NCBI GenBank assembly: GCA_036785375.1
Contig: JAWMAR010000286.1
Location: forward strand, 2,418,001 to 2,482,000
DNA length: 64,000 bases
Reading direction: 5' to 3'
DNA from: Leucoraja ocellata
Lineage: Eukaryota
Each line of letters begins with the position of its first letter. Within the stretch, counting starts at the first letter, position 1. Below the pieces are notes generated by a model. It did no database searches and was not told the DNA's origin. It was given only the letters and a program-made list of their open reading frames with translations. The position numbers and the translations under genes were made by a program. This document shows positions 21,206 to 47,730 of the stretch, in pieces.

Positions 21206-21408
21206 GATCCTGTGTGAGTAAACCAGAACAAGGGTTCAAAACAACACGACCTCAGAGTAAGTTTACTTACCTGGAGGTCCCGTTTTTAAACTTGTTGCGG
21301 GAGAGCTCGTACTCCCGTTCGTCGCTGTTGCACTGTGTGAGATGCTATGTCGCGCATGCGTGCTGGCGGGGTCTTCACGTAGTCACTCACGTGATTTCGA
21401 AGTAAAAT

Positions 21409-22706: not shown

Positions 22707-24037
22707 GTACTAGTTTTCATGATATCATTGAGCAGGAGAAATACTGGCATCACTTTCGGCCATTCTGACCAAATAATGATGTTTGGGGAAATCTGTGGGC
22801 AGTAACAAACTAGCTGCTGCTGTCCATTGATATTCATCATCTTGCCCACTATGCTGCTTCTTAATGTCCTGCACTACGACATATGCCTTTTTATGATTTT
22901 GTTTGGATAAGACATTCAGAAATATATCACTCCTCTAACATATCCCTTTTTGGCAGAAGTGGATGCGGAATGATTGTTAGTGCCAAGTTTCTGAAACCGT
23001 AATTATATGATTATGTTAAATATAATTGCCATTGCAACAATTTGAATTTATTCCTTTTATTGAGGTTCAAAACAATTTGCTTGTTTGTTATATAATTACC
23101 AGATTGTTATTATTCCATGACTCATATGTGGTTATAATTACATTATTAACATTCCTTATGTGTTTAATGTCATACCATGATGTTAATTTACTTTCTGGCC
23201 GCCAGCTTAGGTTTTATGTGAATCATGATTTATAAGGAATGATATGTTTGCTAACCAGAGCTAATAATTTTGCATTTGTGTATTGATCAATTTCTAGAGT
23301 AAATTAAGGTTACAAAAGAAAACAAATATTCTGTGGAAGCCCTGCTTCACATCCAGTAGGAACCTACTCCAGCGGTGTGGATCTCATCTGCAAAGTGGGC
23401 CTTTTGGCTGAGCAAGCATCTCTCTAAAGTAGCTCTTGGAGGAGGAGTGGAGGAGCAACTTTTGGAGGAGTAGCTGGAAGATGCTGAGATCCGCGAATCA
23501 ACATGTCCTGCTCCTTAATCTGCATACTGGCTGAACCAGCTGCTTCATCTTTTACTCAGCATAGCATCATATCCCTACAGAAGTATTTAAACAACATTTA
23601 AACAACAGTTAAAATACATTTGGATATAGAGTGCATGGATAGTAAAGCTTAAAGGGATACAGGCCAAATGTGGGCAGGTGGGAATAGTACAGATGGAGCA
23701 TCTTGGTTAGCATGGGCAAATTGGGTTAAAGGGACTGTTTTAGTGCTGTAAGTGCTATGATTCTGTGCGAGGATCTTGAGGTTTAAGCAGATTCAGCAGC
23801 ATTGGCAGACAAAGGGACTCTTTGGAGGGCCAAGCAGAAGCAGCATTACTTGAGTGGGTTCTGAAAGGCCATTTGAATGACTTTTTTCTGTGATTGGGGC
23901 AATAGAGGTTGAGGGAGCAGAGAAGAGGGAAGTGGAGAAGCCTACGCCTTCCGTTTGGCACACTGACGCTGCCCAAAGATCTGGGATCAACAATAAAGGG
24001 TAATGCATCAGGTTTGAATATAAGCTGCTGAAACACC

Positions 24038-24439
24038 TCAAATGGTGGATTTAACAACCTTATAAGGAATGGCCACTGTCAGTGAATGAAAATTTAAATG
24101 AATGCAACTGATATTGAGGAATTGACTGCAATCAATGTTAGTGAGTTCAGTAGAGACAGGAGGATTAATGCCCTGGCTTTTCTCCCACAGCCCCCACCCA
24201 ACAGAGTTCACATACTTATTAGGCCAACAACCAAACACATAATCTTGTAGATGAGACCATTTTGGTGACAAAGATCTATGCAATGTAATTGTGATACATG
24301 GACAGGCCAGAAAGCGTTGCCTAGTAAACTTCTCTGAAAACATAGATTGTTCAGCAAACATGTCATCAGATGTACCATCTGTGGAAGCTTTCAGTTTTCC
24401 GAATCTTCTAAATGTTGCTGATTCAGAAATAATTAAAAG
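24038..24439 (-). pseudogene. TTC3-like winged-helix exon (FRRFGKL..MFAEQSMFSEKFTRQRFLACP)
   Basis: tttaagcAG acceptor; open frame (ORF 24038-24493); resembles remembered TTC3 MFSAEYEFFPEETRQ..FLLGCP. Confidence 0.55.
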
Positions 24440-24604
24440 CTGCTTAAACACAAAATATGGAAACATGTTGGTAGCTGTTAGACATTTACGCACTTATAAA
24501 CACTTTTAAATGATTTAAATGTTAACACACTGATAAATGCAGCATGCCCAATGCCAGCACACAGTGAGTGTCATTCCATCAGTTTCAGTCCGGTACCCAG
24601 TAAG

Positions 24605-25266
24605 TATGGAAGTTATATAGAAGAACACTTAATTAAAACATTTATCATAGCTAGCAGATGTCAGCTATTTTACGTAATCAGATATCAGCTTATTTTACTT
24701 AGCCTCAGGTGATTGTTAGCCATTTAGCAGCACTCATCTAGTAATCAAGGCACTAAACAAGTTACTTATTTCTACTTTTGCACCTTTGTATTCTTAATAA
24801 ATACATTTGTATCTTTGTGTGTAAACTTATAAACTAATATGTAACAGTATAATATGGTGTGTGGAACATTGGCTTTAGCTAAAACATAATGGTGGCAAAG
24901 TAGACATAGCTGAGAGATTAGAAGTAACAGTTTGAAATCTAAGGGTGGCGAATGATGGAGAGATATGAGGGGAAATGTAAAGTTTAATAAGACTGAACCA
25001 AGGTCAGAAGTTAATGGTGGCAAGACAGACAAAGATAGATTGATGCGAGAGGAGTACAGCATGCAAGATAATGTGGCAGAGATAGGGCTAAAAAACTGTA
25101 ATAAAAAGCTGCCTGTTTCTGTGAATCGGAGAGCAATTAGAGAACGGACAGGTGGTGTCATCTCTGAATGTTCCAGCCGATGTTTGCAAATAAAGGCTTT
25201 CGTCTTCTTGAAGAATCCTCCGTGTCTGTGTCATCTTATCCAACTTTGAGTCTCTAAACCACGACA
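24605..25266 (+). repeat. ERV 5' LTR (662 bp)
   Basis: Direct repeat of 29906-30581 with substitutions and indels; AATAAA; ends ccacgaCA. Confidence 0.92.
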
Positions 25267-26739
25267 AAGTTGACGCAGCGATAAGGTCAGGAAGAGACCG
25301 TTAATTAAAAGACAAACAGCCCAGTGCGCTTCCCAGCCCCTCTGTGGCTCCTAGGGACAACTGGAAAAGGATTGCCACCCATCAAAATTATGCAGTTTTC
25401 CACTTCATTTGGACTAATAACCTGTTGAACATGGGAAGCCATTGGGGACACAGAAGTGCCTATGTAGTTAGAAAGTCTCTCAGACCCAAGAACCTGTCAC
25501 TAAATTCTTCTAAAAGGTGGCCCGGAGGATTGTCCGAGAAGGCTGCGTTGTGTGGTGAGTAATAATATTTGTGATAAGAAAGTACAGCATTGCATTATAT
25601 ATTATTAAGAGATTATTTAGAACTCGTGGATACCACCCTGAGAGGCCAGGGGTTGCACGGATGAGGCAGGTATTAAAACCTTGTGGATACCACCCTGGGG
25701 GGTCAGGGGTTGCAAGGCGAGGCAGGTATTCTGTGGGCACCACCCTGAGAGGTCAGGGGTTTGTACGGGCAGAATAAAGTATTTTGTGGATACCGCCTTG
25801 GGTGACCGAGGGTCGTACAGGCAAAATACGGATTTAAAGTAAGTGGGCAACGGAAACAGTATACACAGTGATAAAATATTGTAGAATAGCAGAAAGTAGA
25901 ATAGCAATAAGGATAATGTAAGGTAATATAGTGACTACAAGGACGGAGAAGGTGTGAGGACTGAGTTTCTTAACTGTTTGTGGAGATAAACTTGCTGCAT
26001 TCACTGCTGCTTGGTCTCTCAGCATTCACTCTGCTACGAGATCAAGACAAAATGTGTTCCCTTTGTCTGGAGATTGATGGGAGTGGGGTGTGGCCAGATG
26101 TTGAATTACTAGGAGTTTGATTGGTTGTGATCTTAGTGGGGTGTGGTTAGAATTTGAGTGACAGTGAGTCTGACTAATCATGATCTGAATCAATGTCCAA
26201 TCACAGCGCTCAGAAACCTGACTGATAGGGGATTAGACCATCCTACTTTAACTTTAAAAAAGGGAGATAAGAATTATCACAATGTTAATTTTGAAACTTT
26301 GTGTAGAAAATTGCAAAATTTCTTTGAAGTAAGAATGGAACGAATGTGATTTGTGTGTACAAAATGGTTTTGAATGAATGCAGAAGTTCATATATGTGAT
26401 AAGTCCTTTGTTTGTTGTAAACCACATGTTGTAAGGGTAGGTGTGTGTGTCCCTTTAAAAAATTGTAAGTAGTGGGGCAGGTTATGAACAACTGTAAGGT
26501 AACAATTAATGCTTTGTGTCCTCTCAACTTAAAAGGGGAAAGTTGGAAAATGTAGGTTGCTTGGTTTTCCTGATGTTTCTTTTATATTTCTTTTCAGTAA
26601 GTTAATTTGGAAAATTGTTACTAGTACTAGGAATTGTAAATTGAAAATAGTGGTGAGAATGGATTGAAATAATTGGAAATGAGTTAATTGCTGAAACACA
26701 ACCCGCTTTTATGGTTTGTTTAGATAAACATTCTGATTG

Positions 26740-27258
26740 GAGAAAGGTAATGATTGTATGCTGAGATTTTCAGAAAAAGTTGTGAGGAAGTGGCCCAAGG
26801 AAGGCACTTTCAAGATAAATTTGTGACAAGATGGAAGTGTTAATTATGAATTATATGCCCACAGATAAGTTGGAAAGGTGGGAAAAGCGGAGAGGAAAGG
26901 AATTAGATGCACTTAGGCAGTTTAGAGAGAAAGGAGAGCGAGGCAGTGAGGAGGCAACAGAAGTAGGAACTGACAGGTGTGAAAGTAATAAATCAGGAGG
27001 AGTCAGTGGAAGATTTTAAAAGGAAGGTGAATGAATTTGCAAAGGAGGCTAGAATATCGGAGAAGTAAGAAATTGAGTTTAGAATAAGAAAGAAGGCATA
27101 CCAGAAAGGATTAAAGTGGGAAGCAGAGGGATAACTTGATGAGACTGCTTTAAAAAGAAAAGAGTAGGACAGACACAGATTATCCTTTGGGGCACCGATC
27201 AACTGAGAAGGCTAAAAAATACCCAACCCAATATTCCTGATGGGCCAGGAAATGGATT
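26740..27258 (+). pseudogene. gag: ERV gag N-terminal remnant
   Basis: VRKWPKEGTF motif (WPxxGTF, gamma/epsilon matrix-like), followed by stops. Confidence 0.5.
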
Positions 27259-28747
27259 ACATAGAAACATAGAAACAAAGAAAATAGGTGTTGGATTAGG
27301 CCATTCGGCCCTTTGAGCCTGCGCCGCCATTCAATATGGCCTACTCCTGCACCTATTTTCTATGTTTCTATGATCATGGCTCATCATCCAACTCAGTATC
27401 CTGTACCTGCCTTCTCTCCATACCCCCTGATCCCTTTAGCCATCAGGGCCACATCTAACTCCCTCTTAAATATAGCCAATGAACTGGCCTCAACTACCTT
27501 CTGTGGCAGAGAGTTCCAGAGACTCATCACTCTCTGCGTGACAAATGCAGTCCTAAAGGATTTCCCCTTTATCCTTAAACAGTGACCCCTTGTCCTGGAC
27601 TTCCCCAACATCGGGAACAATCTTCCTGCATCTAGCCTGTCCAATCCCCTAATAATTTTGTAAGTTTCTATAAGATCCCCCCTCAATCTTCTAAATTCTA
27701 GCAAGTACAAACCGAGTCTATCCAGTCTTTCTTCATATGAAAGTCCTGACATCCCAGGAATCAGTTGGGTGAACCTTCTCTGCACACCCTCTAAGGCGAG
27801 AATGTCTTTCCTCAGATCTGGAGACCAAAACTGTACACAATACTCCAGGTATGGTCTCACCAATACCCTGTACAATTGCAGTAGAACCTCCGTGCTCCTA
27901 TACTCAAATCCTTTTGCTATGAATGCTAACATACCATTCGCTTTTTTCACTGCCTGCTGCACCTGCATGCCTACTTTCAATGACTGGTGTACCATGACAC
28001 CCAGGTCTCGTTGCATCTCCCCTTTTCCTAATCGGCCACCATTTAGATAAAAGTCTGCCTTCCTGTTTTTGCCACCAAACTGCATAACCTCACATTTATC
28101 CACATTATACGGCATCTGCCATACATTTGCCCACTCACCCAAGTCACCTTGCAGCCTCCTAGCATCCTCCTCACAGCTAACACTGCCCCCCAGCTTTGTG
28201 TCATCCACAAACTTGGAGATGTTGCATTCAATTCCCTCGTCCAAATCATTAATATATCTTGTAAATAGCTGGGGTCCCAGCACTGAGCCTTGCGGTACAC
28301 CACTAGTCACTCCCTGCCATTCTGAAAAGGACCCGTTCACTCCTACTCTTTGCTTCCTGTTTGCTAGCCAGTTCTCTATCCACATCAATACTGAACCCCC
28401 AATACCGTGTGCTTTAAGTTTGTATACTAATCTCTTATGTGGGACCTTGTCGAAAGCCTTCTGAAAGTCCAGATATAACACATCCACTGGTTCTCCCCTA
28501 TCCACTCTGCTAGTTACATCCTCCAAAAATCCTATAAGATTCGTCAGACATGATTTACCTTTCGTAAATCCATGCTGACTTTGTCCAATGATTTCACCAC
28601 TTTCCAAATGTGCTGCTACCCCATCTTTAATAACTGACTCTAGCAGTTTCCCCACTACCGATGTTAGACTAACTGGTCTGTAATTCCCCGTTTTCTCTCT
28701 CCCTCCCTTTTAAAAAAAATTGGGGTTACATTAGCTACCTTCCAGTC
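27259..28747 (-). mobile_element. CR1 LINE with a long open RT frame (ORF 27393-28655, 420 aa), inside the ERV
   Basis: QHGFTKGKSCLTNL, YLDFQKAFD, PQGSVLGP, FVDDTKL; (ctatgttt)n tail at 27259. Confidence 0.95.
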
Positions 28748-29060
28748 ACAGGGCATGGTGGAAAGAATAAATGGAACATTGAAGGCTAAGATAAATAAGA
28801 TTTGTGTAACTACAAAGTTGAATTGGATCGATGCCCTGCCATTGGCACTGAAGAGATGTGTAACCAACCTAACACCACATGAGATGCTTACTGGCCGACC
28901 CATGCCGGTGGCACAATGGAGTTTGGAACAGTTAGTGGTAGAATTTAAGCAGTATATGCAACAGTTATGATATACAAGTCTATTTATGCACAGGAAAAGC
29001 AATAGCAGTTGGAGGTAGACCAGGAGGAAGGACCCTTTAAACCTGGAGACAAGGTGTATG
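28742..29060 (+). pseudogene. pol: ERV integrase core C-terminal remnant
   Basis: [48 protein letters not shown]. Confidence 0.85.
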
Positions 29061-29285
29061 TATGAGCTTTCCGAACCACCCACCACTGTTCCTGTAGAAG
29101 GTTGATCTACCTGGTACCATGTCAATCCTTACATGAGGGCTGTCACGCAGGTACGACTCGATAATAGCCCTGAGGTAAGTGAACAGGAGGACAAAGAAGT
29201 GAGGGAAGAGCAGAGCTCTAACAAGATAATGTGAGGTTTTCGGAGACACTAGTGACTATGAAACTGGTGTAAATAAGGTCAGAGT

Positions 29286-29600
29286 GAGGGGGGTGCATGT
29301 GTCTTGTTTGGGGAACAATGCTGCGCCTTCATACCTAATAATACTAGCCCGGAGGGGTCTTTCACTAAAGCCATGGATAAGCTAAAAAACCTAAGGAGTG
29401 AGGTTAAACGAAACGCAGGGTTCAGACATCAATTGTTTGGGTGGCTGGAGAGCGTATTGGGGGGTTAGGGAGCATGGCTAATTAAAATTTGCTTGACCAT
29501 TGGGGTTGCACTACTTGCAGTGGCAATCATGTTGTGCTGTGTTTTCCCGTCTCTCCTGGTGAAAGCTACTGTGAAGCAACTGCCAATGATAACAGGTGAA
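29286..29600 (+). pseudogene. env: ERV env transmembrane-subunit remnant
   Basis: Manual translation EGGACVLFGEQCCAFIPNNTSPEGSFTKAMDKL..WLESVLGG*GAWLIKICLTIGVALLAVAIMLCC: CX6CC motif plus TM helix. Confidence 0.88.
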
Positions 29601-29905
29601 GCCGAATCTGGCCCTCAAGGAAAATGGACCTTGTGATAGAATACTACTACGATGGAGAAGAAGTGTTAGGAAAATGCAAAACAAAGTGTGTAAGGGGAGC
29701 TGGATCATTTTTTCCTGCCTCACGTAATAGGGGTGGGTTTTTGGCCCAGTCTCCCAGGGAGCCAAAGAAAGAACAGTGCACGGCATTACACTGTTAATTA
29801 AAATACCCTGCATTTTAGGACTCTATGAGCGATTTGACATGGGGTTGTGTGTGTGTGGTTTTCTTTGTCTGTTGAGACTCGGAAGAATCTCAAAGGAGGG
29901 AGTTA

Positions 29906-30581
29906 TATGGAAGTTATATAGAAGAACACTTAATTAAAACATTTATCATAGCCAGCAGATGTCAGCTATTTTATGTGATCAGACTTCGGCTTATTATACT
30001 TAGCCTCACGTGATTGTTAGCCATTTAGCGGCACTTAATTAAATCATTTATCTAGTAATCAAGGCACTAAACAAGTTACTTATTTCTACTTTTGCACATT
30101 TGTATTCTTAATAAATACATTTGTATCTTTGTGTGTTAACATAAATTAATATGTAACATATGGTGTATGTAATCTTGGCTTTTGTTAAAACATAATGGTG
30201 GCAAAATAGACATAGCTGAGAGATTAGAAGTAACAATTTGAAATCTAAGGGTGGCGAAAGATGGAGTGATATGAGGGGAAATGTAAAGTTTTAGAAAACT
30301 GAACCAAGGTCGGAAGTTAATTGTGGCGAGACAGAGAATATTAGAATCGAAGCTAGATTGATGCGAGAGTAGTACAGCATGCAAGATAATGTAGCAGAGA
30401 TAAGGCTGAAAAACTGTAATAAAAAACTGCTTCTGTGAATTGGAGAGCAATTAGAGAACGGACAAGTGGTGTCATCTCTGAATGTTCCAGCCGATGTTTG
30501 CAAAATAAAGGCTTTCGCCTTCTTGAAGAATTCTCTGTGTCTGTGTCATCTTGTCCAACTTTGAGTCTCTAAACCACGACA
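29906..30581 (+). repeat. ERV 3' LTR (676 bp)
   Basis: Direct repeat of 24605-25266, followed by TAAG. Confidence 0.92.
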
Positions 30582-30612
30582 TAAGCTGCTCTCTCTGCGG
30601 TAGGTCAGCTAC

Positions 30613-30765
30613 CTTTGAGAGCTGCTTCATCAGTCCCAGCTCAGTTCAGAAAGAACACCTTTGCAAATTCCCAGTCCACCAAACAGGGCCAATATGTAAA
30701 GGGTAGACTATATCTGACAAATTGATATTGCTACTCAAGTCAGTGGTTACCCAGTTGAATATGAC
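30613..30765 (-). pseudogene. TTC3-like exon GHIQLGNH*LE*QYQFVRYSLPFTYWP..
   Basis: tttgcAG|..|GTagct boundaries; three stops. Confidence 0.45.
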
Positions 30766-30989
30766 CTGCAAAGGACTATATATTTGGTTCAGGTAATTTC
30801 AGAAGACATCAAATAAAGTCCATAAAGAACACATAAATCTGAAGCACCTGAATTTGGCTAAAGGAATTGGCTAAAGAGGGTAGAGAGGTCTGCAAGGAAG
30901 GATAGCACTGATCGATGATGTGGGTGCTGCAGCGGCAGATGTTGTATGCTGCAAAGACTTGTGTGTTGGGACTGCGACTATTTTATTAC

Positions 30990-31370
30990 TAATAATTGAG
31001 AGAATAGGCTAGTAAATAGCGGAAAAGAGATGACTGATGTTCAGTTTTGGTTTGGGTTTGGCAAACACCACTCAGCTTCAGACCTTGATCCAACCATGGT
31101 GAGGCATTTGACCCAGTGTGATCAAGAGGTCCTGACAAAAATAAAGTCAATGAACATTAAGTGGGAAATATTCCAGTGTTTAGAGAGATACCTCACTGAA
31201 GGGATAATGGATTGAGGTGGTTCCAGGTCAGCCATCAGCTACAGGACATTACAGCTCAAATTTATCAAAACAGTGACCTAAGACACAACCATCTTCAACT
31301 GCAGCCTCAAAGACTTTCCTTCCATTAGGTCAGAATGTTTTGGTGATTGCACAATGTTCAATTCATTCTC
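30990..31370 (+). mobile_element. Ancient CR1-group LINE RT remnant; related remnants at 31960-32400 (minus) and 44850-45170 (plus)
   Basis: TDVQF.FG..HSASDL; ..FGDCTMF; DKAEVDAIVFSQKC; HKVWWCHVKHGEGIILLLTIYH. Confidence 0.55.
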
Positions 31371-32739
31371 AGCTCCCCTGCAAATAAAATGTTGACATCG
31401 CTGTCATCGTCCGTCCTGAAAAGGACGCAATCTTCCGGGGACAATCAGTGGGAGCCATCACTTGGTGCAATAGATGATAATGGTAGCAGAATTAGCTCGG
31501 GTACTTCCAGTTTCCAGCCACGCGACATGGACACTTCTGCTATAGGACCAGTGCTAGACCATTTCTAACAAGACAAAATCTAATCGCTTACACTTGGCAT
31601 TCAATTATATTATCTTCATTGAGTTCTGCAACATCAGCACTTTTGGGGCCCTTCTGGCATCTATAAGATGTTGGTAATAACTGTGATAGAATGTTCTCCA
31701 CCTCCACCAATCAGATTCAACAATATTCATAAAGTTTGGTTCCATTAAAGATAACTTAATTGTTACCTTAACAACCAATCTAAGTTGCTTGACCCGATGA
31801 GTTCCAATAGCAGTAGAAGCAAAGAACTGCAGATGCTGGTTTATACCAAAGATAGACACAAACTGCTGGAGTAACTCAGCAGGTCAGGCAGCATCTCTGG
31901 CGAAAAATGATGGGTGACGTTTTGGGTCGGGACCCTTCTTCAGACCTCCAGGGATTTGTTCTTTACGTATAAATATTCATTCCCTCTGCCCCCATTGCAC
32001 AGCCTCTGCAACGAGCAGCACCATGTATTTCAGTTACAGGATAGGTTGATGTGACTGCATTCTGTATTGCTTTTGTGTGAAAGAATGTACCTGTGTTATA
32101 TTCTAGAAACTCGGGAATTACCTGAACAGCTGTACCACAGGCATGACCAGTTATGGAGAGCAGATCTTCAGTCACACAATTAAAATGCTACCAGGGTCTT
32201 GCACCATTTCCAGTAGCCAGTCTCTCACCCAATTCTATTATTACATGAAATAAATCAAATTCGCTTTTGTGACAATGAAACTATCAGGAGGAGTGAAATT
32301 GGGTTATCTCATCAGCACTTCTGGCTGAAGACAATTGCATCAACTTCAGCTTTGTCACAAATACTGATGTGCTAATCTGACTATAATTGTTAATGGGAAA
32401 ATTCTTAAACCCTCGTCTTACTGCCAGCTGCTTTTTAATTGTGCATCAACGTTCATGGCTGGATAGAAACATAGAAACATAGAAATTAGGTGCAGGAGTA
32501 GGCCATTCGGCCCTTCGAGCCTGCACTGCCATTCAATATGATCATGGCTGATCATCCAACTCAGTATCCCGTACCTGCCTTCTCTCCATACCCCCTGATC
32601 CCTTTAGCCACAAGGGCCACATCTAACTCCCTCTTAAATATAGCCAATGAACTGTGGAATTGTTCAAAGTCTGATCATTATTATGGGGTGGAAAATCTAT
32701 GACAGTAAACAGGAGCCTAGCTACCTAATGCAAGTCCAA

Positions 32740-33578
32740 CATAATCTGAATATGGATTGGATCCAGTCATTCAACTTGATACTCAAGTTCACATCATTGG
32801 ACTGTTGTGCATGATGGCACAAATGACATAGGTAGGAATTGGGATGATGTCCCATAAATTAATCACAGGGAATTAGGCAAATATTGAAAAGCAGGACCTC
32901 CAGCATCGTGATCTTCAAATTACTTTCTGTGTCATGTGCCAGTGAGGGTAGTAATAGGAAGATTGGACAGATTAATGCACAGCTATGGACTTGACGCATG
33001 GGGCAGATATCAGATTTTTGGACCACAGGGATCTCTTCTGGGCCAAGGATGACCTGTAAAAGAAGAATGGATTGCACCTGAACTGGAGTGGAACCAATAT
33101 CCTGTCAGATAGGTTTATTAGTGCTACACGGGTAGGGTTAAACTAGATTGGCTGGGGGACGGGTGGATGGGTGCAATCACTGTGTGCATTGAGATGGGCA
33201 AGGTCCTCAATGAGTAGTTCTCCTCTGTGTAGAGTGGAGAAAGATGTGAAGACTGATGAACTTAGGATAGTTAATGAAAGTATTTTTAGGACAGTTAGTA
33301 TTACAGTTGAGGAGGTGTTGGGACATCTTAAGCCATATGAAGGTGGATACATTTCCTGGGCCTGATCAGATTTCCTGAGGACACTGTGGAAGCTAGGAAA
33401 TAAATTGATGACACTGTGATATACTAATCATCATTAAATATGGGTGAGGTAATGGAAGACTGGAGGGTGGCTAATGTTGTGTATCTATGTAAGGAAAATT
33501 GCAAGGAAAATCCTGGGAACTATAGACCAGCGAGCCCAACATCTGTAGTAGACAAATTACTGGAGAGTAATCTGAATG

Positions 33579-33629
<51 letters not shown>

Positions 33630-33720
33630 GCTGATTAGGGATAGTCAGCATTGTTATGTACGTGGAAGATCTCACAAATCTGATTGAGTTTTTTGAAGAA
33701 GCAACTAAGAAGATTGATGA
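32740..33720 (+). mobile_element. Old CR1 with ORF1 SGNH-esterase and ORF2 remnants; (TA)n at ~33582-33622
   Basis: VVHDGTNDIGR, FLDHRDLFWAKDDL; EDWRVANVV..PGNYRP. Confidence 0.75.
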
Positions 33721-33749
33721 CTCATAGAGTCATAAAGTCATACAACATG

Positions 33750-34250
33750 GACCGCCTGGGCCTACGCAATCTCCTGGTTGCTAAACACTCCTCACATCTC
33801 CACACTGACCTTTCTGACCTGGGCCTCCTCCACTGTCAGAGTGAGGCCAAATGCAAATTGGAGGAACAGTAACTCATATTTTGCCTGTACATCTTACACC
33901 CAGCAGTACGATTATTGAGTTCTCTAACTTCAAGTAACCCTTGCTTTTCCTCTCTCGCTATCCCTCCCTCACTCTAGTTCTGACTCGTTTCACTGTCCTG
34001 ATTAATTTTACTGTTTGTATGCCTCATTGTCATCTTCCCCTCACCAACAATGAACCATTGTACATTTCCTTGATCATCATTTGCTATGATCTGTTCTTTT
34101 CATACCTTACATGTCCTTTGTACCCTTCATATCTCGATTCCCTTTCCTCTAATTCTCAGTGTGAAGAAGGGTCTTGACTCGAAACATCACCTATTCCTTC
34201 TCTCCAGAGCTGCAACCTGTCCCACTGAGTTACTCCTGCATATGTTGTGC
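33750..34250 (+). mobile_element. Penelope-like 3' fragment
   Basis: LGLLHCQSEAKCKLEEQ; hammerhead-like motif at ~34160. Confidence 0.75.
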
Positions 34251-34379
34251 CTGTTACAAAGTATAAATAAGTTTCAAGGATTCGGATCAATGAATGGAGA
34301 AAGCAAATTTAGGAGAGTACAAACTACTATATTTATTAAAACAAAATACAGAAAAAGGATTAATAAAGCAACAGGTTTC

Positions 34380-35018
34380 ACGTCTCTCAGCGCACTCAAG
34401 ACTCCTGCCTGCGATGGCTAGCCTTAAGAACGAATCCTGACATCTGCACGCACCATGGTCCAGGTCTCTCTCTCTCTCCCCCAGAAGGTGAAGTCTTTCT
34501 CTAACAGTCGAAGCATGCACTCATACAATAAAATAATCTTGTGTTTCTACCCTCATCTACGAACAACAGATGACAATGTGCCAAACTATTCTCCTTTGTG
34601 CCACAATAGCTTGAGTCATTTGTTCTATGAGACACTGAGCTAGTCTTGGATGTCTCTGGGAATACAAAAGTTGATATTTGTGAACTTGCAGATGGCCTCA
34701 TGATTTACTGGTTGCACTATGTTTGCCTAAGCCTTAGTTCAAAACATCTATTTGTTTTCCATTAACCTTCACCTGTTCATTCCATCAGTGGTTATGGATT
34801 TATTTGATCTTATATGCATGTGCATGTTTGGGCATATTTGTAAACAGTTAGTATTGTTTTGCCAGTCACAAAAGGCTTTACTTTTCTGGATGTGGAAGTT
34901 CTTGATTTATTTTTGTCAAACCAACCCTGACAACATATACCAATGAAAACTGAGGATTCATTGCCTAGCTTGTGGATGGCAGCTTTCAGGATCTTCAAAA
35001 GGGAGAGTGCAAAGTTCC
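34380..35018 (-). pseudogene. TTC3-like exons with TPR-like remnants
   Basis: 34941-35018 ELCTLPFEDPESCHPQARQ*; HEAICKFT near 34700; TW.(fs)GACRCQDSFLRL near 34460. Confidence 0.4.
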
Positions 35019-35498
35019 CTAACCAAGAGTCGTACTTTTTCTGGTCGCCACTGGATTTTCAACATTTTGAAACATTTCGGTGACCTGGACAAATGACAAT
35101 AAAACACACTTGAAAATTGAATCTCTCGTGACAATTGAAGTTGGGAAGGTAAGAAGTGATACGTGTTTGAGCATCAAGAAGACAAAAGGTTACATAATTG
35201 AGAAGATTAGAATAAGTCAGTGAAGTTATGCTGCAGTGAACCTTCATCTGCGTTTGACTTTGAGTTTAATTCATTGTCAGGTGTATCAACGTACATCTTC
35301 CAAATTAAGTGGAAATGGACAGTTGTTGCAAAAACTTGATTAAGTATTAAAGTATCAACAAAAAATGAGGACACAGAAGACGTGGTTTATCTGGAACTGT
35401 TGAAAGCGGAATTTTATGAAAAAGAAGAAAACCGGTCCATTTGAAATGTAGTGGTGGAGAAAATCAATCAGAAAGGGTGGGTGGCAAGGAGAACCAAC

Positions 35499-35761
35499 CA
35501 TTCTAAGCTGGGCCAGACTTGTTGCATTGAGGTTGTGATGGTGACACATAACCTGACATGCTTTTGATTAGTGATATGCAAAAATAACATGAGGTGCAAG
35601 TGAACAGAAATAAAGGAAACTGGCTAACATGATGGATGGATAAGATAAAACAAATGCTACTAGTATACTGCTGTAGCAGCTTCAGGAAGTAGTTGGCGAT
35701 AAGCCTGGAAAGAGCATACGTCATTGGTGTACTCAAACCTGAGTTGTCTTAGACAGGATTG
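35499..35761 (-). pseudogene. TTC3-like exons 35669-35761 (QSCLRQLRFEYTNDVCSFQAYRQLLPEAATA) and 35499-35552 (LCVTITTSMQQVWPSLE)
   Basis: AG/GT boundaries and open frames. Confidence 0.45.
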
Positions 35762-36385: not shown

Positions 36386-36699
36386 AAGCCTAATCCAGGC
36401 ATCATTCTGGTAAACCTCTTCTTCATCCTTTCCTTAGTCTCCATATCCCTCCTATAATGGGGAAACCAGAATTGCAAGCAATACTCCAAATGCGGCGTAA
36501 CCAAGGTCCTATAAAGTTGCATTATAACTTCCTGACTGTTATGATCAATACCTCGACCAATGAAGTTAAGCATACAGTATGCCTTCTTTACCACTTTCAG
36601 GGAGTTATGGACATAGTCCTCAAGAACGTTCTATACATCAATGTTGTTAATGGTCTTGCCATTAATTGTTTATATTCTTTTGGGGAATGTACAATGGGA

Positions 36700-37080
36700 A
36701 TGGTACAGTGGTAGAGTTGCAGTCTTACAGCATCAGAAACCAGAAGTTGATCCTGATTATTGGTGTTGTCTGTACAGAGTTTGTATGTTCTATCTGTGAC
36801 CATGTGGCTTTTCTCCAGGTGCTCTGGTTTCATACTACACTTCAAAGACTTTCCTTCGCTCCATAAATGCTGCTGCAGCCGCTGAGTTTCTCCAGCACTT
36901 TTGTCTACCTTTGATTTTCCAGCATCTGCAGTTCCTTCTTAAACACTTCAAAGACGTACAGGTTTGTAGTTTAATTGGCTTCTGTAAAATTATAAATTGT
37001 CCCTTGGGTGTAGGATAGCATTGGTGTATGGGGTGATCACTGGCCGGGCGAAATGCCTGTTTCCTCGCTATATCTCTCGA
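36700..37080 (+). mobile_element. tRNA-derived V-SINE/HE1-like SINE interrupted by a Penelope tail (36850-36942)
   Basis: A/B-box-like head and V-domain gagtttgtatgttct; 13-bp TSD acacttcaaagac at 36837-36849 and 36943-36955. Confidence 0.7.
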
Positions 37081-38748
37081 AAGTATTTTGACCTCACACT
37101 TGCTCAGATTAAACACCATTTGCCATTTCTCCACCCATTTCCATAGCTGATGTATATCGCACTGTATAATTTGACAGCCTTCTTCACAGTCCGTGATGCA
37201 AGCAATTATGATGTAAGCTTCAGTCTTATTAACCAACGTGTCTACGTTTACGTCCAAGTTATTCTCCAGTCATCAGGGACCTTGCCTGTGGCAAGAGAAC
37301 CTGCAATTTTCTGGCATTGAGAAACAGAATCTAAGCAGTTAAATGTTTGATATCAGCTGAACCTTACCTCTACACAAAGTGGCACTTTGAGTGGGAGAAT
37401 GAAACAGAAGACTGAGTACATCATAAAATTGGGGGCTTATGAAATGCGGAACAGTCAAATACAATACATTCAGAACCAGAATTATCGGCTACAAGTGCAC
37501 AATCTTACAGCCAAAATCAGAGACTGAAACAATAACAGCAGCTTCATTTCCAATTCTTCCAATTATAGGCTTGGAAAAATGTACCATATAGTTTTGATGC
37601 TGTAGGGATTCAAGTTTTCACCTTACCTCCAATTCAATTCTATAAAGTGTCAAGCTTACATGATATTTCTACAGTGTACCTTGACCTGCTGCTGCAATGA
37701 TAAATAAACTGACAATGTGTGCGCACAGGGCCTGAAATTACATCCCTAATGTACCTGAAGGACCCTTGGTGATTATTGAGTTCCTGTCTGTAGCAAATGA
37801 GTGGAGCAGATCCAGCATATCTTGTGCAAAAGCAGAGAAGCAGAAACGAAGATGAGCATTCCTGGAAGTGTCATAAATGTATCAACTTAAAGTAGCCCTC
37901 TTTGTTCGACAGGAGAAGAGCATTTTGGAGAATACATTTTCAGCCATGTACATGAGGATCAGTTACAGGTAGAACATACACTAAGCAAATTACGGTATAT
38001 AGCAGGAACAGACCCCTCAGCCCACGATGTCTGTGCCAAATATGATGCCAAATTAAACTAAATTCTTCAGCCTGTGCATTATTTATATCTCTCAATTCTC
38101 TGTGTATGTATATTGATCAATTAGAAAGCAAACCACAGAAGTTGTGATGAAAAGTTTCTGGAAAAGGAAATGTATTGTCTATCAGAGGAATGAAAAATAA
38201 TGAAATGTCTGGCCAGCTTTCCATGAAAGCGATAAATATCCTCAAGAAGGTTGCATGTCACAAGATCTTGTTTGTTAAACTATATTAAAAGATGTAGAGA
38301 GCAAGGGAAGAAGAGCATATTTTCAGCAAAGGATGTGGAGTTGAGAACTGTTCTGCTCATTTTGAAGGGTTTGCACTTGAAATGACTAAGAGACTACGTG
38401 CCATTATAGTTAGTTAAATATATAGATATAGAAAACATGCATAGTGTGAAGCTCAGATTTGTCCATAAGGAACGCGAGGAATTCCAGCCAGTAGAGGTGC
38501 AACCTAACCCTCTTGTACGTCACCTCCGCCTCAGCAGGGATACCAATGATCTAAAATTCTGAAACCTTGTCCTCTGCACAACTCCTCAGCTATGCATTAA
38601 TCTGTCCTATTTTCCTATTCCTACACTCACTAGAATGTGGCACCTGGAAGAATCAGAGATCACTACCCTTAAGGTCCCAGCCTTTTTATCTAATTTCCTA
38701 TATTTTTCTTGTATATTTTCATTATGTTTTTTGGTAGAATTAAGTTAC

Positions 38749-38822
38749 CTTCCAGGTTCATTTGGAAGGCAGCTATGACTGGATCCGGATTCTCAATCCA
38801 ACCTTGCAATGCTGACAATCCC
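38749..38822 (-). pseudogene. TTC3-like exon GLSALQGWIENPDPVIAAFQMNLE
   Basis: tgtAG|..|GTaact boundaries. Its phase-1 end fits the next exon at ~38209-38266 (DLVTCNLLEDIYRFHGKLA). Confidence 0.6.
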
Positions 38823-40199
38823 CTACACTGATGGATATTAATGAGCCCAGCGGACTGTTTGTGATATTTGCACACAAAGTTACTATCTTTGCTTCAGATT
38901 TATTTAGTTAATTACATTTAAACTTTTTCAATTTTTCGTATTTACTCTCCAGATACCTAGTCCTTTGACAAAATCACTGTGTTACAATATCACCAATATT
39001 TCAGTGTTCACATAATTAATAAGATTTCACTTTAAATGTTCATTACTTGGGTATCTCCTCACAATGGGAAAAGTTTCATGCTACTGCAAATAGTTTGGAG
39101 ATTGTAGTTGCGTGAAAGCTTTATATGAGCATATTGTCACACATTTACAAATTGAGCTTTTGGTAAACATAAATGCTAATCATGTAAAGATATACATTTG
39201 TGAAATTTAGTTAATTCCTGCTTTGTGAAAAGAATATCTCAAAGGTATTATGTTGTTCAAGGCGGATGCATCTGTTGAGCAAATTCACTCTGCGACATTC
39301 ATTATTTGCCACTTCCTAAATGGGGATCATGACAGAAGCCTCCTCATGGCAATCCCCAAAACGGCGACACAATGCACTCTGTGACGCATCGGGCGACCAA
39401 TTCTGTCAGCATGTTGGATGATGACAGAAGCCAAAAGCGAGCTATACGTCGTCTGACACACGAGCGAACGAACTTGCTAAATTTGCCAATATTATGCATC
39501 TGCGTAAGTACTGGTGATGCAACACTTGTGTCTTCAAAATCCAAAATACTCTGTTTTTCTACTTTTTTCTCTCATTAACGGATCTCACATTTTTCCACAC
39601 TGTCAGACTCCAGCCCATTTACTCAGCTACTTTACATTCCCTGAATCCTCTCTGCATCTGCCTGACAACAGATACAGTCGCCAAGCTTTGAATCATTGGC
39701 AAACATGGTTATATCATACTTCATTTGCTTTTCCAATGATTTATATAAATTGTGAACAGAGTGTCCTCCAGTACTGATTACTGCAACATCCCACTGGTCA
39801 CCCATTTTGTTCCTATTGCTTACTGTCCATGAAACAATCTTTAGTTCATGCTAATGTTTCACTCCAAAACCTGTGTTCAAGTGTTGTATAATAATCTCTT
39901 GCATGGTCCCCATGTGAAGGCAAATATGCTGCATCTACTGATTCCCCCTTTCCTATTTTGTCAGTCACAATAACAAAAAAACTTCAATAGGCTTTTCTTC
40001 TTTTCATAATCCATTTACAATTCTGCTCAGTGCTTATTATTTATTATTTCCCAGGTGCTTCATTACAACTTTTTAAACCATAGATTCCAGCAGTTTCTCT
40101 TAAATTGATACCTGCCTTCCCTCTCATTACTTTCTTAAATGATGCTGTCATTTTTACTACCTATCAGTCTCTAGGAACTATTTTAGAATCTATAATATA

Positions 40200-42690
40200 C
40201 TAGACTAAGTGGGACCCGTTGGGTCCCATGTTCACAAGGGAGGGCTGGTCCCTCAATGCAATATTTCGTGGGGGGGGGGGGGGGGGGGGGTCTAGAGCAC
40301 TAGTATGGCTATTGTGGGCTGAAGTAACTGGTTTTGTGAGGTCTAGTATGGACATTGTGGGCCAAATGGATTCTTGGGGTGCCAGCTCAGTCACTCAACC
40401 CTGATGTGCTGGCAGCACACTCACGGCTGATGGGCTGGCAGTTGACTCACGGATATTACTTGAAATTCCATTTCAAACAGGGTGCAAGGCCACCAAATTC
40501 AAATGCAATTTCTTACCATTTCAAGCAGGATGAAAGGCCACCAAATTCAAGTGCAGTTTCGTACCACTTCAAGCAGGGTGCAAGTCAAGTCAAGTCAAGT
40601 CAAGTTTATTTGTCACATACACATACGAGATGTGCAGTGAAATGAAAGTGGCAAGGCCACCAAATTAAAGTGCAGTTTCATGCCACTTCAAACAGGTGCA
40701 AGGCCACCAAACTCAAATGCAGTTTCCTGCCACTTCAAGCAGGGTGCAAGGCCACCAAATTCAAGTGCAGTTTCATACCACTTCAAGCAGGGTGCAAGGC
40801 CACCAAATTCAAGTGCAGTTTCATACCACTTCAAGCAGAGTGCAAGGCCACCAAACACAAGTGCAGTTTCATGACACTTCAACCAGGGTGCAAAGTCACC
40901 AAATTCAAATGCAGTTTTATGCCACTTCAAGCAGGGGTGCATCGCCACCAATTTCAAGTGCAGTTTCATGCCACTACAAGCAGGGTGCAAGGCCACCAAA
41001 TTCAATGCAGTTTCATACCATTTCATGCAGGATGCAAGGCCACCACATTCAAATGAAGTTCCATACCATTTCAAGCAGGGTGAAACCACCATAAAACCAC
41101 ATGAAACACCATGTAAACACCACATTCACAGTTCAGTAGGCATTCAATGTGTTCAGTTGATTTACAGTTCAGTCAGAGTCGTGACCTTTCCCTCCCGCAT
41201 CTTGCAGAGACTGAGCCACACTCACACTTCCGGGTTTTATAATCCCCTCTCCCTCCCACCAGAAGGGGCGTGCCGTCATGGCATGATTGACAGGAGAGGG
41301 ATTCTCAACATTTTTTAAACACTAATAACACTTATATTTTTCAATGATGGGAAAAATCCTCTGCACCTGATGAGCGAGGGGGACTGAGTAAGATGGCCAT
41401 AAGTGGTAGCGTTTTATCTAAAATCAATATACAGTGCAAACAGGAAGTTGTCAAGTTTAGACTTTGAATCGTATGGCATCCACCACCAATAACCATTTGC
41501 TGTGCTTTATCTCAAACCAACCACAACAAACAACCATTTGCTGTGATTTATTTCAACCAACCACAACAAACAACCATTTGCTGTGATTTATTTCAAACCA
41601 ACCACCACCAACAACCATTTGCTGTGCTTTATTTCAAACCAACCACCATCAACCATTTGCTGTGCTTTATTTCAAACCAACCACATTTTCATTTTTAAAC
41701 CACATTAAGGGCACTCATGGTCAGTAAAACCATGCTCACAGTTTAGTATACATGTGTTCAGTGTTATTCACAGCTCAGACTGAGAGACGTGACCCTCTCG
41801 TTCCCCCATCTTGCAGGGACTGACTGAGGCACTCAACACTTCCGGGTTTTATAGTCCCTCCGGAAGGGGCTTGGCCTTCAGGAGAAAGAATCGCAACATT
41901 TTGTAAACACTGAAACCCCTGTCCCATGGTGCGAGTCCACCCACGAGTTATCCCGAGTTAAAACAAATCAAACTCGTGGTAATCACGTAGAATGAACGTA
42001 GCGGGAACATCGGAGCTCATGGACGTAACTTAGCGACTCGTAACGCTAATGGCAGGTACTCGGGAAACGTGGTAACTCGTGAAAATGTTGACAGATTTCC
42101 ACAAGTCAAATATCGTCTTGAAGGAAAATTTTTATACTTTTAAACTCGTAATACCGTAGTAGCCCGTGCGTTTATCGTATTAACTCGTGGGTAATCTTAA
42201 CTCGGCAGCTGGACAGAGAAAAAAAAGGTGAGGAAAAAAAAAGGTTCATCAAGTCTGCCTGTCAGGAATGATCTCTTGATGCTGGAGACACTGGGGGAAT
42301 CTCACCTTGGCCTTTGGAATAGAGCGACCAACAACCAATATTTCCACATTTCCAAGGGGCAGGTCACTTGTTTATGTGTCTTTCACATTACTGCTTCAGA
42401 GGTTTGGGTGGAAACAGGCTCTTCGGCCTACTGAGCCAGTCGTCAAACACTCATTTACCTCAATCTAATTTCTGCCCGCATTCACATTAATTTCCTACCT
42501 GAGCCCCATTCGACCACTCACCGACACATTGGGGGAAGGTGACAGTCCTTCAGGTGTTTTTGCCATTCATTTCTCATTGAGTCATGGGCTCATACAACAC
42601 AGCAGGTGTTGCGGGGAGCATTCATGCAACAAAGCAGCGTGCGGGGAGTGAAAGAGTGAAAGGGTGCACTTGGGGGAAACTCCATAAAAA
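40200..42690 (-). mobile_element. Non-autonomous Helitron-like element, copy 2 (5' boundary uncertain)
   Basis: Minus strand ends GGGACCC-aac-GGGTCCC-acttagt-CTAG|T, the canonical Helitron hairpin plus CTRR; ~11 units of 48 bp at 40470-41085 and 5 units of 41 bp. Confidence 0.8.
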
Positions 42691-43466
42691 AGTACCGGAG
42701 GTTAGAATCGAATCCGGGTCCCTGAAGCAGTGACACACGCTGCTCAAGTGAACGTATAATGAAATGAATGAGGATAGACAATAACCAGATGAATTGATCT
42801 AAGAGCATAGATTGAACGTGAGCAGCAGGCGGAATAGAGGGCATCTGATGATTTTTTTCTCAACCCAGCAGTCTGTAGTTGTAATCTGAGAACGCGACGG
42901 AGGCAGGTTTACAAAGTATATGGGCCAGAACTCAAATAACGGTCAGGAAGGCTATGGTTGGAATGGACATGGTGGGCAGAGGAGATTGTTTCTGTGTTGT
43001 ATGAACCCATGACTTGATGAGAAATGAGTGGCAAAAACACCTGAAGGATTGTGAGATAATGATCATGGATGACTTTTAATGAAAGTCCACACATACAGAT
43101 AGACAGCCAAGAAGAACTTTATATCTACACTCAGGTGGACTGGCAGAAGGAGGAGATAGGAGTTGGGGATAGAGAGGAAAAGCCCAAGAGAAATACAGGG
43201 AAAGGGATATTGGAAAAGACAGATGCTTGGAATCCTGTCAAAACATTTAAAAGGTATAAACACATAGCAAATGGGTGCAGGAGTAGGCCATTCAGCCCTT
43301 TGACCCAGCATTGCCATTCAATACTATCAAGGCTGATCATCCAATATCAGTACCCCGTTTCTGCTTTCTCCTCATATCCCTTGATTCCGTAACCCTAAGA
43401 AATTTTAAACATGGGAGGCTTTTTATAGTGACATAAAAAACTGCATGACATCATTTTTATCATGTG

Positions 43467-43666
43467 NNNNNNNNNNNNNNNNNNNNNNNNNNNNNNNNNN
43501 NNNNNNNNNNNNNNNNNNNNNNNNNNNNNNNNNNNNNNNNNNNNNNNNNNNNNNNNNNNNNNNNNNNNNNNNNNNNNNNNNNNNNNNNNNNNNNNNNNNN
43601 NNNNNNNNNNNNNNNNNNNNNNNNNNNNNNNNNNNNNNNNNNNNNNNNNNNNNNNNNNNNNNNNNN
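43467..43666. other. Assembly gap (200 N)
   Basis: Run of n. Confidence 1.
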
Positions 43667-46004
43667 AATAGTAGGAGGAAACAGATGTTTTATTGCACAG
43701 AACACTGATTCTGATCATTTCATGAGAGGCAGAAATGAAGAAAGCCTGTAGCACATTGAGTTATATTGTTGACATATCAGTAAAAGAGTCAGCTTTGATA
43801 GTCATGGAACTGTGGAATAGTGCCCAGGCAATACTGTGAATATAGCACCCATACTTAAAGCCAAAAGCTTCAGAATTTCAAGGCAGTGATGATCCACAAG
43901 ACGGATTTCCAGCATTATGAAAAGCATCTGAAGAAATGAGAGCATCTCATTTTGGAAAGAAGGCATCAGGGAAATCATTTTATTGAGATGTGCCAAATTG
44001 CCAAGAATACAGAAAAAAATATACCTGGAATATTATTTTTTTATTAAACTGATATTATTTAATTGATGTTAACAATGAGAAAAGGCTCAATTATGAAGTA
44101 TGCTTTGAGACGGAACAGAAAATTTGCATTCACCCAAGACATTTTCATTACATGCAAAACAATCTATAGATTAAATTGTGGAGGTCAAGATTGGGATTTA
44201 AAATGGAGGGTTATTACTTTGTGAACAAATAACAATATAACTGACAGAGATCGGCTTCAGTGCAGAAGAACAGCAATGGCAGAGTATTGTTATTAAGGAA
44301 TAAGCTGCAAGCTTGAGTTTACCACGGAATGAGTTACAGGATATTTTAATAGAGATATTACTGTGAAGTGGTTATTTTACTGGAGTTGGACAAAAATGCT
44401 GGAGAAACTCAGTGGGTGAGGCAGCATCAATGGAGCGAAGGAATAGCTCCATAGATATTTACTAAAGTAGTAATCCAAATGCCTCAATGAAGGTTTGAAT
44501 GATATTTGTTCAAATCCTATCTTTGAATTTCAGTTCAATCAATAATAAACATTCTGGAATAAAAGCTGATATAAATAATAGTGATTGTGATCCTAATAGT
44601 CTGTTGTAAGAACCCTCGATACCCAAGTGCCATTTAAAGAAGGAAATCTGGCATTGTCACTAAATTTGGGCAATAGAATGTTTCAGACCATTATCTATTA
44701 ACTGCCTTCTTAAGTAGCCTGGCAAATCACAGAGCAATTATGACAAATGCTAAAGATCTCCCAGCAACAACCTATACAAGGAATTCAACAGTTGACCCAA
44801 TTCTGGTGACCGAGTATAGTCTTCCTCATTAATGAATTACAATCGTGTCAAGATGTGTAGGACGATCCCACACTCAACATAATCCTACTCACTACATGGG
44901 CTTTCATTTCTGAACACTCTTAGCCAATGCAGTGGATTCTCCATCACCCTCTCTTGGTCACATCAAATCCCACTGGCAGTACAGACACATCAAGGGTGCA
45001 ACCAGGAGGGAGAGGCACCGGGGTCTTTGATGTTGAGTCTGGACATCATAAAGTATGGTGGTGTCATGTTAAACATGGGGAAGGAATTATCCTGCTGCTC
45101 ACCATATATCACCATGTATCACATCACTCAGCTGGTGAATTAGTATTATTGCATGGTCAACACCAATAGCAAAAAGCAACAAATTGCTGTACTTCACGCA
45201 GGGACTTTAATTTCTACCATCAAGAAAAACTCAGAAGTGTCACAAAAGAACACAAAGTGCTGGAGTAACTCAGTGGGTGAAGCAGCATTCCTAGAGAACA
45301 TAGATAGGTGATGTTTCAGGTCGAGACCTTTCTTTGGAAATTGGCAGTGGGGGGGGGGGGGGGGGGATTTGTGGAGAGGAGAAACACTCAGGTGGTGCAC
45401 AGGGGAGGGAGGCAGGGGGAGGGGGGGGGGGGGGGAAGAAGGATGGAATAAGGACGTGGGAGGTTGGTTGGTTTGGGGGGAGAAAGGGAAGAGGTGTTTT
45501 GAGAGGTTACCTAAAATTGGAGAACTCAGTGTTCAAGCAGAATACGGGGTGCTGTTCCTTCCCCCTCCACTTCTATCCTAAAGCCCCTCAACCACCCCCC
45601 CTCCTTCACCCTCCCCCCATATAGACCCACTTTTTTCACCCCATCATTCACCCCACCACCCCCTGGCTTTACATTCTGCAACTCTTCAAACCTGTATCAC
45701 ACCTTCCTTGCTTTCTGATCTTCGGCCTTTGTTCCAACTAGCTGTCTAAAACCTCCTCCCTCACCCATGTCACCCTATTACTTGCCACGCATGTCCTGCC
45801 TCTCCCTTTTTCCACCTTTCTTCTTTCTCCCCACCATTTCTACAATATGTCTGAAGAAGGGTCTCGACCTGAAATGTCTCCTATCCATGATCTCCAGCGA
45901 TACTGCCGGGCCCGTTGAGATTACTCCAGCACTTTGTGCTCTTTTGCGCATTAACCAGCATCTGCAGTTCCTTGTTTCTGCATTTAGGAATGTCATCACT
46001 GACT

Positions 46005-46540
46005 GAGGTATCAAGAGTTAAGATGCTACATTACAACTTTATAAAACACTGGTTAGGCCATGCTTAAACTATTGTGTGCAGTGCCGGTCACCACACTATA
46101 GAAATGAAACAGTTGCAATAGAGAGGTGCAGAGATTCACCGGAATGGAGTGGAGTTGGCTGGAATGGAGGACTTTCATTATGAGAAGAGATGAGATAGGT
46201 TAGGTTTGTTTTCCCTCCAGTGAAGGGAATTTATTCTATAAATTGCATTCTATTCTAAGCTGAGTGGTGACAATAGAAGTGTATAAATGTAGGAGAGGCA
46301 TAACAATTATCTTTGTATCACATTGTAGGGGTGTCAAACAGAAGAAGGTATTGTTTTAAGGTGAGAGGAAGGAGGTTTAAAGAAGATTTGAGGGAGGTGA
46401 TTTTTAGACAGAGGCTGGTTGATATTTGTTTCGCGCTAGCAGAGAGGGGGTAGAATCAGATACACATGCTGCTTTTAAGAAGCATTTATCCATGGGAAGG
46501 CACGGGAGGATATTGATCCAGTGGGATTAGTGTATCTGTA
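46005..46540 (+). mobile_element. Old CR1 3' fragment
   Basis: LQLYKTLVRPCLNYCVQCRSPHYR. Confidence 0.75.
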
Positions 46541-47404
46541 TTCGGCAAGGATGTGACTCGTTCTGCCAAGTTCAGGAAACGCCAGCTGTTCCTGCCGAGA
46601 TCACAAATACATCAACACTCACGATACGCAGCTAAGAGAGCATTCAACGCGGACACGACCACTTTCAGAGAACGCACATAATGCATACTGCCAAGTTTTA
46701 CACTCTCTCTCGGAGTTCAGAGAATGCACAACAGGCAGACGACCCAGTTCTGTGAAAGCTCAGCCCTCAGAGTGCCGCGTCTGGAAGTACACAGTGCGGG
46801 TAGTGGGGATACTTTACAATGTGTCACGGGCGCACAACAGCTTCTCGATAACGAAAGGGAGAGTGGAAAAAAGGATTATATTCAAAATTAATCTGGAATT
46901 GTTATAAAACTATAGGCGGAGGAGAGAAAATAAACGTGAACAATTCAGGCGCAGAGCTTTTGGCAAACCCGACATTCTGGGGATTTCTTCGAAAATGATG
47001 TTTATCAGACTTTTGTTGTGTATTTCCACCACTTTGTGTTCTCGGAAGTACCACCTGTTCATCTCAGGTTGCAGTGGAAATAGGAGTTAAATCGCGTGCG
47101 AGGGCAGACCCAAGTTGTCCGGGTGAGGGAAAGATTGATTAATGATCTTCAACTGAAACTCCTGACACTGACCTCGTCTACAAAACAACAATCTGGTACA
47201 GTGTTGTTTTTCTTTTTATTTAGCAATGCTATTGCTTTGTGAATGAGGTCAGATTCGGAGGTTTCCATTCAAACCCATCCTTCCATTCTCAAAAATGTCC
47301 CAGTTTCAGTAAAAATAAATCGATGTCTTCGGCAAAGCTGTGTTGCAAAAGATAATTATTTCACCAGTTATTTCAGGAAAAACTGGAGGAAGTGTGTTGC
47401 TTAC

Positions 47405-47730
47405 CTCAGGTTGCCTGGACACTGGTTGAAGCGGTCTCCTCAGGTCCGGCTGTAGACAACGCGAATGCTTTCTGCCTCTAAAAGTGAGGGTGCTCCTTTG
47501 GAATCACACCCCTCTGGGAATCGATCGCAATTGAGCACGACCCTCAAGAGCTTAAGAGCACAGGTGAGAGGATACTGAAATTCGTACACATCAGCCACTG
47601 ACCTCCAACAGTTCAACAACTCTCAGTATTCACAACTTGAGCACAGCGCTGACAGTGTTGGAGAGCGATCGAAGTCTCCGCCTGAAACAGCGGCGTCGAC
47701 AGCACGGAGAAGGTGCGTCACCGATTGGGT
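47405..47730 (-). promoter_or_regulatory. Candidate promoter and first exon of the TTC3-like locus
   Basis: Local CpG enrichment; minus-strand CCAAT (47724-47728) next to TGACG (47716-47720); strong donor GAG|GTAAGC at 47405/47404. Confidence 0.4.

Follow-up and report, generated by a model that had tools for sequence, protein, structure and literature searches.

A possible relic of a TTC3-like gene in repeat-rich DNA of the skate Leucoraja ocellata

TTC3 (tetratricopeptide repeat domain 3), a RING E3 ligase, has been tied to ribosome quality control and is reported to limit translation initiation when this quality control fails (PMC11880988). The locus considered here lies on the minus strand of a 64,000-nucleotide stretch of the L. 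ocellata genome (assembly GCA_036785375.1, contig JAWMAR010000286.1, positions 2,418,001 to 2,482,000), hereafter the window, within which all coordinates are given. Mammalian DZIP3, a paralogue of TTC3, is not known to have the N-terminal region over which the resemblance of the locus to TTC3 is best. A sequence-only reading of the window had proposed that a decayed TTC3/DZIP3-like ubiquitin ligase gene of about 25 kb (22710 to 47730) is threaded between the repeats. We consider that the locus may be a truncated, unprocessed, intron-bearing pseudogene of the TTC3 family, best supported at its 5' end, and assign this reading a probability of about 0.5. The family label comes from resemblance to TTC3, with alignments scored by hand, and could not be confirmed by any tool. 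The TTC3 sequence used for these alignments agrees with at least two TTC3 peptides (at about residues 704 and 949, both outside the aligned region) in supplement 7 of PMC9117253; a search of the supplements of PMC7801436 found none.

Boundaries were set for 12 candidate exon segments (A to K plus one denoted x2, together 2085 nt), and their splice sites were ranked against all unmasked sites with approximate textbook matrices. The candidate first exon, A (47405..47700), ends in a strong GT donor (47404, within the top 0.3 % of unmasked GT sites), has a guanine-plus-cytosine (GC) content of 0.53 and an observed-to-expected CpG ratio of 0.71, and contains two in-frame stops and no in-frame ATG, its sole ATG (47591) being out of frame. 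The following segment, B (43855..43927), is a 73-nt AG..GT candidate with an acceptor in the top 0.7 %, a donor in the top 14 % and three stops in the proposed frame. The 79-nt candidate C (38749..38827) is stop-free, with a donor in the top 1.2 % and a GC content of 0.48 against 0.35 and 0.28 in its flanks; an alternative acceptor at 38822 was the choice of the sequence-only reading. Segment D (38209..38266) is also stop-free and in phase with C; its AG acceptor is weak (74th percentile, in the weaker half), and it ends in CAG|AC with no GT donor. The cleanest unit is E (37755..37861), a stop-free 107-nt AG..GT candidate with an acceptor in the top 6.7 % and a donor in the top 3.9 %; two such units occur on each strand of the region. 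Finally, F (35468..35517) has a weak acceptor in phase with E and a stop after 16 codons, and no donor was found for it.

With the acceptor of C placed at 38827 and a non-GT end allowed for D, segments A-B-C-D-E-F join in phases 2, 0, 1, 2 and 1. The B-F chain (43927-35468) comprises 139 codons from the A|B junction, with stops at codons 5, 20, 25 and 123, and C-D-E-F stays open for 97 codons. Splicing from the donor at 38748 to the acceptor before 38266 does follow the GT-AG rule, is in phase and yields the 26-residue peptide that had been aligned with TTC3. The B-F chain is nearly equal in length to the matching TTC3 stretch and the resemblances are contiguous; B would fit TTC3 markedly better given two compensating frameshifts.

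Segment A lies in a CpG-retaining patch (46400..47800), in which four windows have observed-to-expected CpG ratios of 0.66-0.97 against a median of 0.32. The patch, which includes boxes near A (CCAAT at 47778 and 47728, TGACG at 47720), is possibly promoter-like. It is not unique, an equal level being reached in 20 of the 126 unmasked windows. The two strongest AG..GT units of the whole region, at about 19 bits each, are found here on the plus strand (47068-47122 and 47410-47563); one of them overlaps A and is partly a mirror image of its donor. These units possibly belong to an antisense transcript.

Farther along the minus strand, G (34380..34720), which comprises the pieces previously regarded as TPR-like, carries a frameshift and stops, its splice ends not being fixed, and x2 (32122..32324) is a 203-nt AG..GT candidate with three stops and a donor in the top 0.9 %. 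The NH...WP piece, H (30613..30765), has AG and GT ends (acceptor in the top 2.7 %) and two stops, and I (24216..24439), for which a winged helix had been proposed, has AG and GT ends around 74 open codons. The Pro-rich exon suggested at 23330-23574 corresponds to J (23331..23574), a GC-rich island (0.50 against 0.29 and 0.28 in the flanks; composition p 0.022) that is Pro-rich and has an AG acceptor but ends in CAG|AA with no GT donor and contains three stops. The last segment, K (22734..22990), has 66 open codons and is followed by a CR1 fragment at 22709; the DZIP3-like motif LLPTDFP is present in it at 22805, but no RING cysteine pattern precedes the motif. Because the open frame of K contains no cysteine, it encodes no RING, and Pfam detected no RING family in 22698-22999. 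As the sequence-only reading had stated, several segments have both AG and GT ends (B, C, E, x2, H and I), and several are disabled, stops or frameshifts being present in A, B, F, G, x2, H and J. Seven of its nine quoted motifs are found on the minus strand (at 38770, 38252, 35518, 34699, 24361, 24322 and 22805), but two spaced patterns are absent as typed: to recover the TPR-like pattern near 34460 and NH...WP near 30750, one has to cross a frameshift or to accept stops and a different spacing. GC content exceeds that of the upstream flank in 11 of the 12 candidates and that of both flanks in six.

If the locus is such a pseudogene, transcription would formerly have started near 47.7 kb, in the CpG-rich patch, and run along the minus strand, and a transcript with A-B-C-D-E-F spliced together would have encoded the N-terminal portion of a protein resembling TTC3. 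Once the gene had ceased to function, stops, frameshifts and donor losses would have accumulated, long interspersed nuclear element (LINE) and long terminal repeat (LTR) insertions would have broken up the locus, and the majority of its middle and 3' exons would have disappeared in large deletions. No ubiquitin ligase is made now, because A has no in-frame ATG, B has three stops and K lacks the RING pattern; the present output would be at most a non-coding transcript.

The pseudogene reading is weakened from several sides, beginning with the anatomy of the locus itself. For the 5' chain to hold, D has to end without a GT donor, and the acceptors used by D and F are both weak; the hand score of the whole chain against TTC3 is little above that of its best piece. 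Intron positions are usually kept by orthologues and ohnologues; the introns of human TTC3 miss the B|C, C|D and E|F junctions and coincide only with the end of D (one of four). With the intervening LTR element removed, H and I are separated by 196 unique bases, I and J by 531, and J and K by 340. In TTC3, the counterparts of H and I lie about 580 residues and many exons apart, so that, given the 196 unique bases, deletion must have taken the greater part of the gene. The assignments made in the 3' half (winged helix, Pro-rich exon, DZIP3-like tail) are weak, and coincidence may account for some of G, H, I, J and K even with a genuine 5' chain.

Homology searches point in the same direction. 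In Pfam, 129 pieces of the locus produced no TTC3, DZIP3, TPR, winged-helix or RING family: 21 long minus-strand frames matched RVT_1 alone, and two sets of short pieces (50 and 58) had only unrelated matches below the cut-off. Among the features of TTC3, the TPR, the TTC3/DZIP3 domain, the winged helix, the coiled coil and the RING were undetected by Pfam in the segments. The domain shared by TTC3 and DZIP3 (TTC3_DZIP3_dom in Pfam) had no match in the frames scanned, and 196 unique bases remain at its expected place. The winged helix was not borne out, the whole of I and five sub-pieces matching no Pfam family; the family in question would be WHD_TTC3, provided that the Pfam copy used includes it. 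The TPRs proposed at 34380-34720 likewise found neither a Pfam TPR nor a Protein Data Bank (PDB) match, and decay could hide a TPR there. With TPR, shared domain, winged helix and RING all undetected, we do not file the locus as a TTC3-family member. Word searches covered 5.8 billion proteins of at most 2000 residues, so that longer TTC3 forms lie outside their scope; the search with I gave 10 candidates and only the open reading frame (ORF) of the locus itself (database protein P0001), that with C, D, E, F and H stacked gave 68 candidates, none at E<=10, and that with J and K stacked gave 291 candidates and no relative. A phmmer search of I against 1.84 billion protein representatives returned P0001 and two repetitive proteins, which were rejected as artefacts on reading. 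Comparison of I, G and K with PDB gave 0, 0 and 4 matches, respectively, all four weak (best E 0.92) and none a relative, and the ESM Atlas gave no usable match for I or E, the recognition value of E (2279) lying just below the mark of 2300. The large protein-set searches covered C, D, E, F, H, I, J and K, and the protein-level search of A was made in Pfam.

The reach of these searches was gauged with simulated relatives. Relatives of I were found at E<0.001 in nine of ten cases at 55 % identity and in two of ten at 35 %, and those of the stacked query in nine of ten at 65 % and in one of ten at 45 %. On such short pieces the searches are therefore blind below about 55-65 % identity and exclude only a close intact relative: a close intact orthologue in the searched sets appears unlikely, and a remote or long-decayed relative is compatible with the blank searches. 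The database protein P0001 reproduces the ORF of I at 99 %, differing in the first residue and one substitution, and runs through intron-side sequence, which makes it unspliced. If the contig of P0001 is independent of the present assembly, the state of I is no assembly error.

The main rival explanation, possible though in our judgment not probable, is chance resemblance: ordinary unique non-coding DNA (old, unrecognizable repeats and intergenic sequence) would have offered short matches to a long protein, and AG and GT ends in their neighborhood would then have been assigned to them. The negative searches agree with it, as do several measurements of what chance can deliver. The dozen or so minus-strand exon-like segments reported earlier do exist, but AG..GT exon-like units are not in excess there, minus and plus strands having 22 and 22, 9 and 9, and 6 and 9 at three thresholds; this parity persists when GC contrast is added, and the plus-strand units at 47068-47122 and 47410-47563 are equally strong. 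In the frames selected for the segments, amino-acid composition has a weak protein-like character (Fisher p 0.027, with J, K and A best), but p rises to 0.42 when the null takes the best of three frames. The printed 26-residue pair with TTC3 has 10 of 26 residues identical and scores 38 (BLOSUM62, by hand); run against the unmasked minus frames with no splicing freedom, all 300 of 300 random 2025-residue proteins reached at least this score (median 44), and 249 of 300 decoys produced four pieces in order that scored at the levels printed, AG being required beside two of them. Against chance stand the agreement in phase of five junctions, the 97-codon open run and the rarity of the tight chain in any one protein. 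When the strict C|D, E, F anatomy was imposed on 6739 decoys with both strands counted, 1395 had the anchor, 797 the anchor with E and 56 the complete chain; this rate of 0.8 % flatters the finding, because the thresholds were fixed post hoc to equal what had been observed, one of them by reference to TTC3, and across a whole proteome it would leave chance chains in the tens. Judged against a single protein, nothing but the contiguous 5' chain with its compatible phases exceeds chance, and this chain would not survive whole-proteome correction. It keeps some weight because a reader without tools cannot search a proteome exhaustively, and the full multiple-testing penalty would accordingly overstate the case for chance.

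Part of the same evidence could be read as a real transcription unit that has nothing to do with TTC3 and that yields either a long non-coding RNA or the product of a small gene evolving fast. Such a unit would start at the CpG patch, splice A, C and E and perhaps still be active. The strong donors of these three segments, the patch with its CCAAT and TGACG boxes, the open C-D-E-F run and the near-threshold Atlas value of E would all suit such a unit. We regard it as distinctly unlikely, given that no spliced product of at least 71 residues appeared among the 5.8 billion proteins (an exact one would score about 140 bits, the blank being weak evidence) and that P0001, the sole database protein of the locus, is unspliced. 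Far less probable still, and rejected here, is the reading that a TTC3-like gene is intact at the locus and owes its stops to errors in the assembly. The stop-free state of C, D and E and a 200-base N gap (43466-43665) close to B would favor it; stops and frameshifts in seven segments, the reproduction of I by P0001, a total of 2085 nt that is about one-third of what a 2025-residue protein needs, and the failure of the stacked word search and phmmer to match the orthologue expected in that case all speak against it. The gap itself separates B and C and could conceal an exon. It is rather unlikely that the locus represents an unrecorded, anciently diverged TTC3 paralogue that persisted in cartilaginous fishes and had an exon structure of its own, or that it is the sole TTC3 of the lineage.

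Were the pseudogene reading true, the locus would record either the loss of a TTC3/DZIP3-family gene or a duplicate that has died, an ordinary pseudogene at best. A dead duplicate beside a working copy is routine, and the case would be of interest only if TTC3 had been lost throughout the lineage or if the paralogue were an unrecorded one. A lineage-wide loss would provide a useful natural comparison for ribosome quality control, and if the relic were the only TTC3 of the lineage, a vertebrate lineage would be living without this ribosome-quality-control ligase. In listings of the open-licence literature on TTC3, DZIP3, RBM44 and cartilaginous fishes, we found no TTC3-family pseudogene or loss of this kind.

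The surrounding window is gene-poor and repeat-rich, with GC content mostly between 0.38 and 0.50. Among 105 window ORFs scanned with Pfam (100 of the 127 listed plus five associated with transposable elements (TEs), nearly all from the flanks), none matched a host gene, the matches being TE-type domains and a few unrelated hits below the cut-off; hence no flanking gene is available for synteny. Rfam gave no matches. The repeats, which were masked by self-similarity within the window, comprise Gypsy-type LTR and DIRS-type elements, pieces of CR1/L2-type LINEs and, within the claimed gene, another LTR element; self-similarity accounts for 16 kb of the window, and 30 kb are covered after masking of whole elements. 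Location of the candidate segments in unique sequence was upheld for 12 of 13, which lie outside the window self-repeats; the exception (33053-32950) is a repeat and was rejected as an exon. Compared with 12 TE ORFs from the window, the candidates showed no match apart from one in the K flank, and a TE origin of B-F was rejected, these segments being outside self-repeats and matching no TE protein of the window. The mask probably under-calls repeats, because a stretch at about 31000-31500, which appears to resemble an old LINE on the opposite strand, stays unmasked.

The LTR element within the claimed gene (24605..30581, minus strand) lies between H and I and has two terminal repeats of about 670 nt that are 93.7 % identical and is probably flanked by a target duplication of 4 bases; its interior is decayed, and a CR1-type LINE (27257-28709; RVT_1, E 3.6e-30) is nested in it. 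Elsewhere in the window, a young Gypsy-type LTR retrotransposon on the plus strand (4717-9482) has terminal repeats identical at 211 of 213 positions and a 1031-codon pol ORF with reverse transcriptase (RT), RNase H and integrase, with gag and protease in other frames. In the DIRS-type element (approximately 16400-21350, minus strand), gag-like ORFs are accompanied by a broken RT/RNase H and by a tyrosine recombinase ORF of 330 codons (16946-17938; Phage_integrase, E 1.3e-5). An element with 41-base and 48-base tandem arrays is present in copies of both orientations, at 21346-22528, 40184-42112 and 15595-16091. A LINE-type fragment at 2354-2794 (minus strand) matches Pfam ALKBH8_N (E 4e-16) and is probably a retroelement piece rather than an ALKBH8 gene, and an 84-codon open frame at 59517-59768 (plus strand) lies in unique DNA and has protein-like wording, Pfam being blank for it.

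Compared with the known systems, the locus appears to resemble TTC3 in the minus-strand order of an N-terminal region, a TPR, a TPR-WP piece and a winged helix, with the best resemblance over about 140 N-terminal residues; it differs in that no similarity is supported by a tool and in holding at most about one-third of the TTC3 length. With DZIP3 (hRUL138) it shares a seven-residue tail motif in K that resembles the DZIP3 C-terminus, whereas RING cysteines are missing before the motif and neither a HEPN nor a TTC3/DZIP3 domain was found at the locus. Unprocessed vertebrate pseudogenes, duplicated or unitary, provide the remaining comparison. The locus has stops and frameshifts as they do, and would resemble them in its candidate exon-sized pieces that keep splice ends, in the loss of donors and in TE insertions of younger age; such exon-like units are in no excess over the opposite strand, the searches retrieved no parent gene, and synteny has no flanking gene to draw on.

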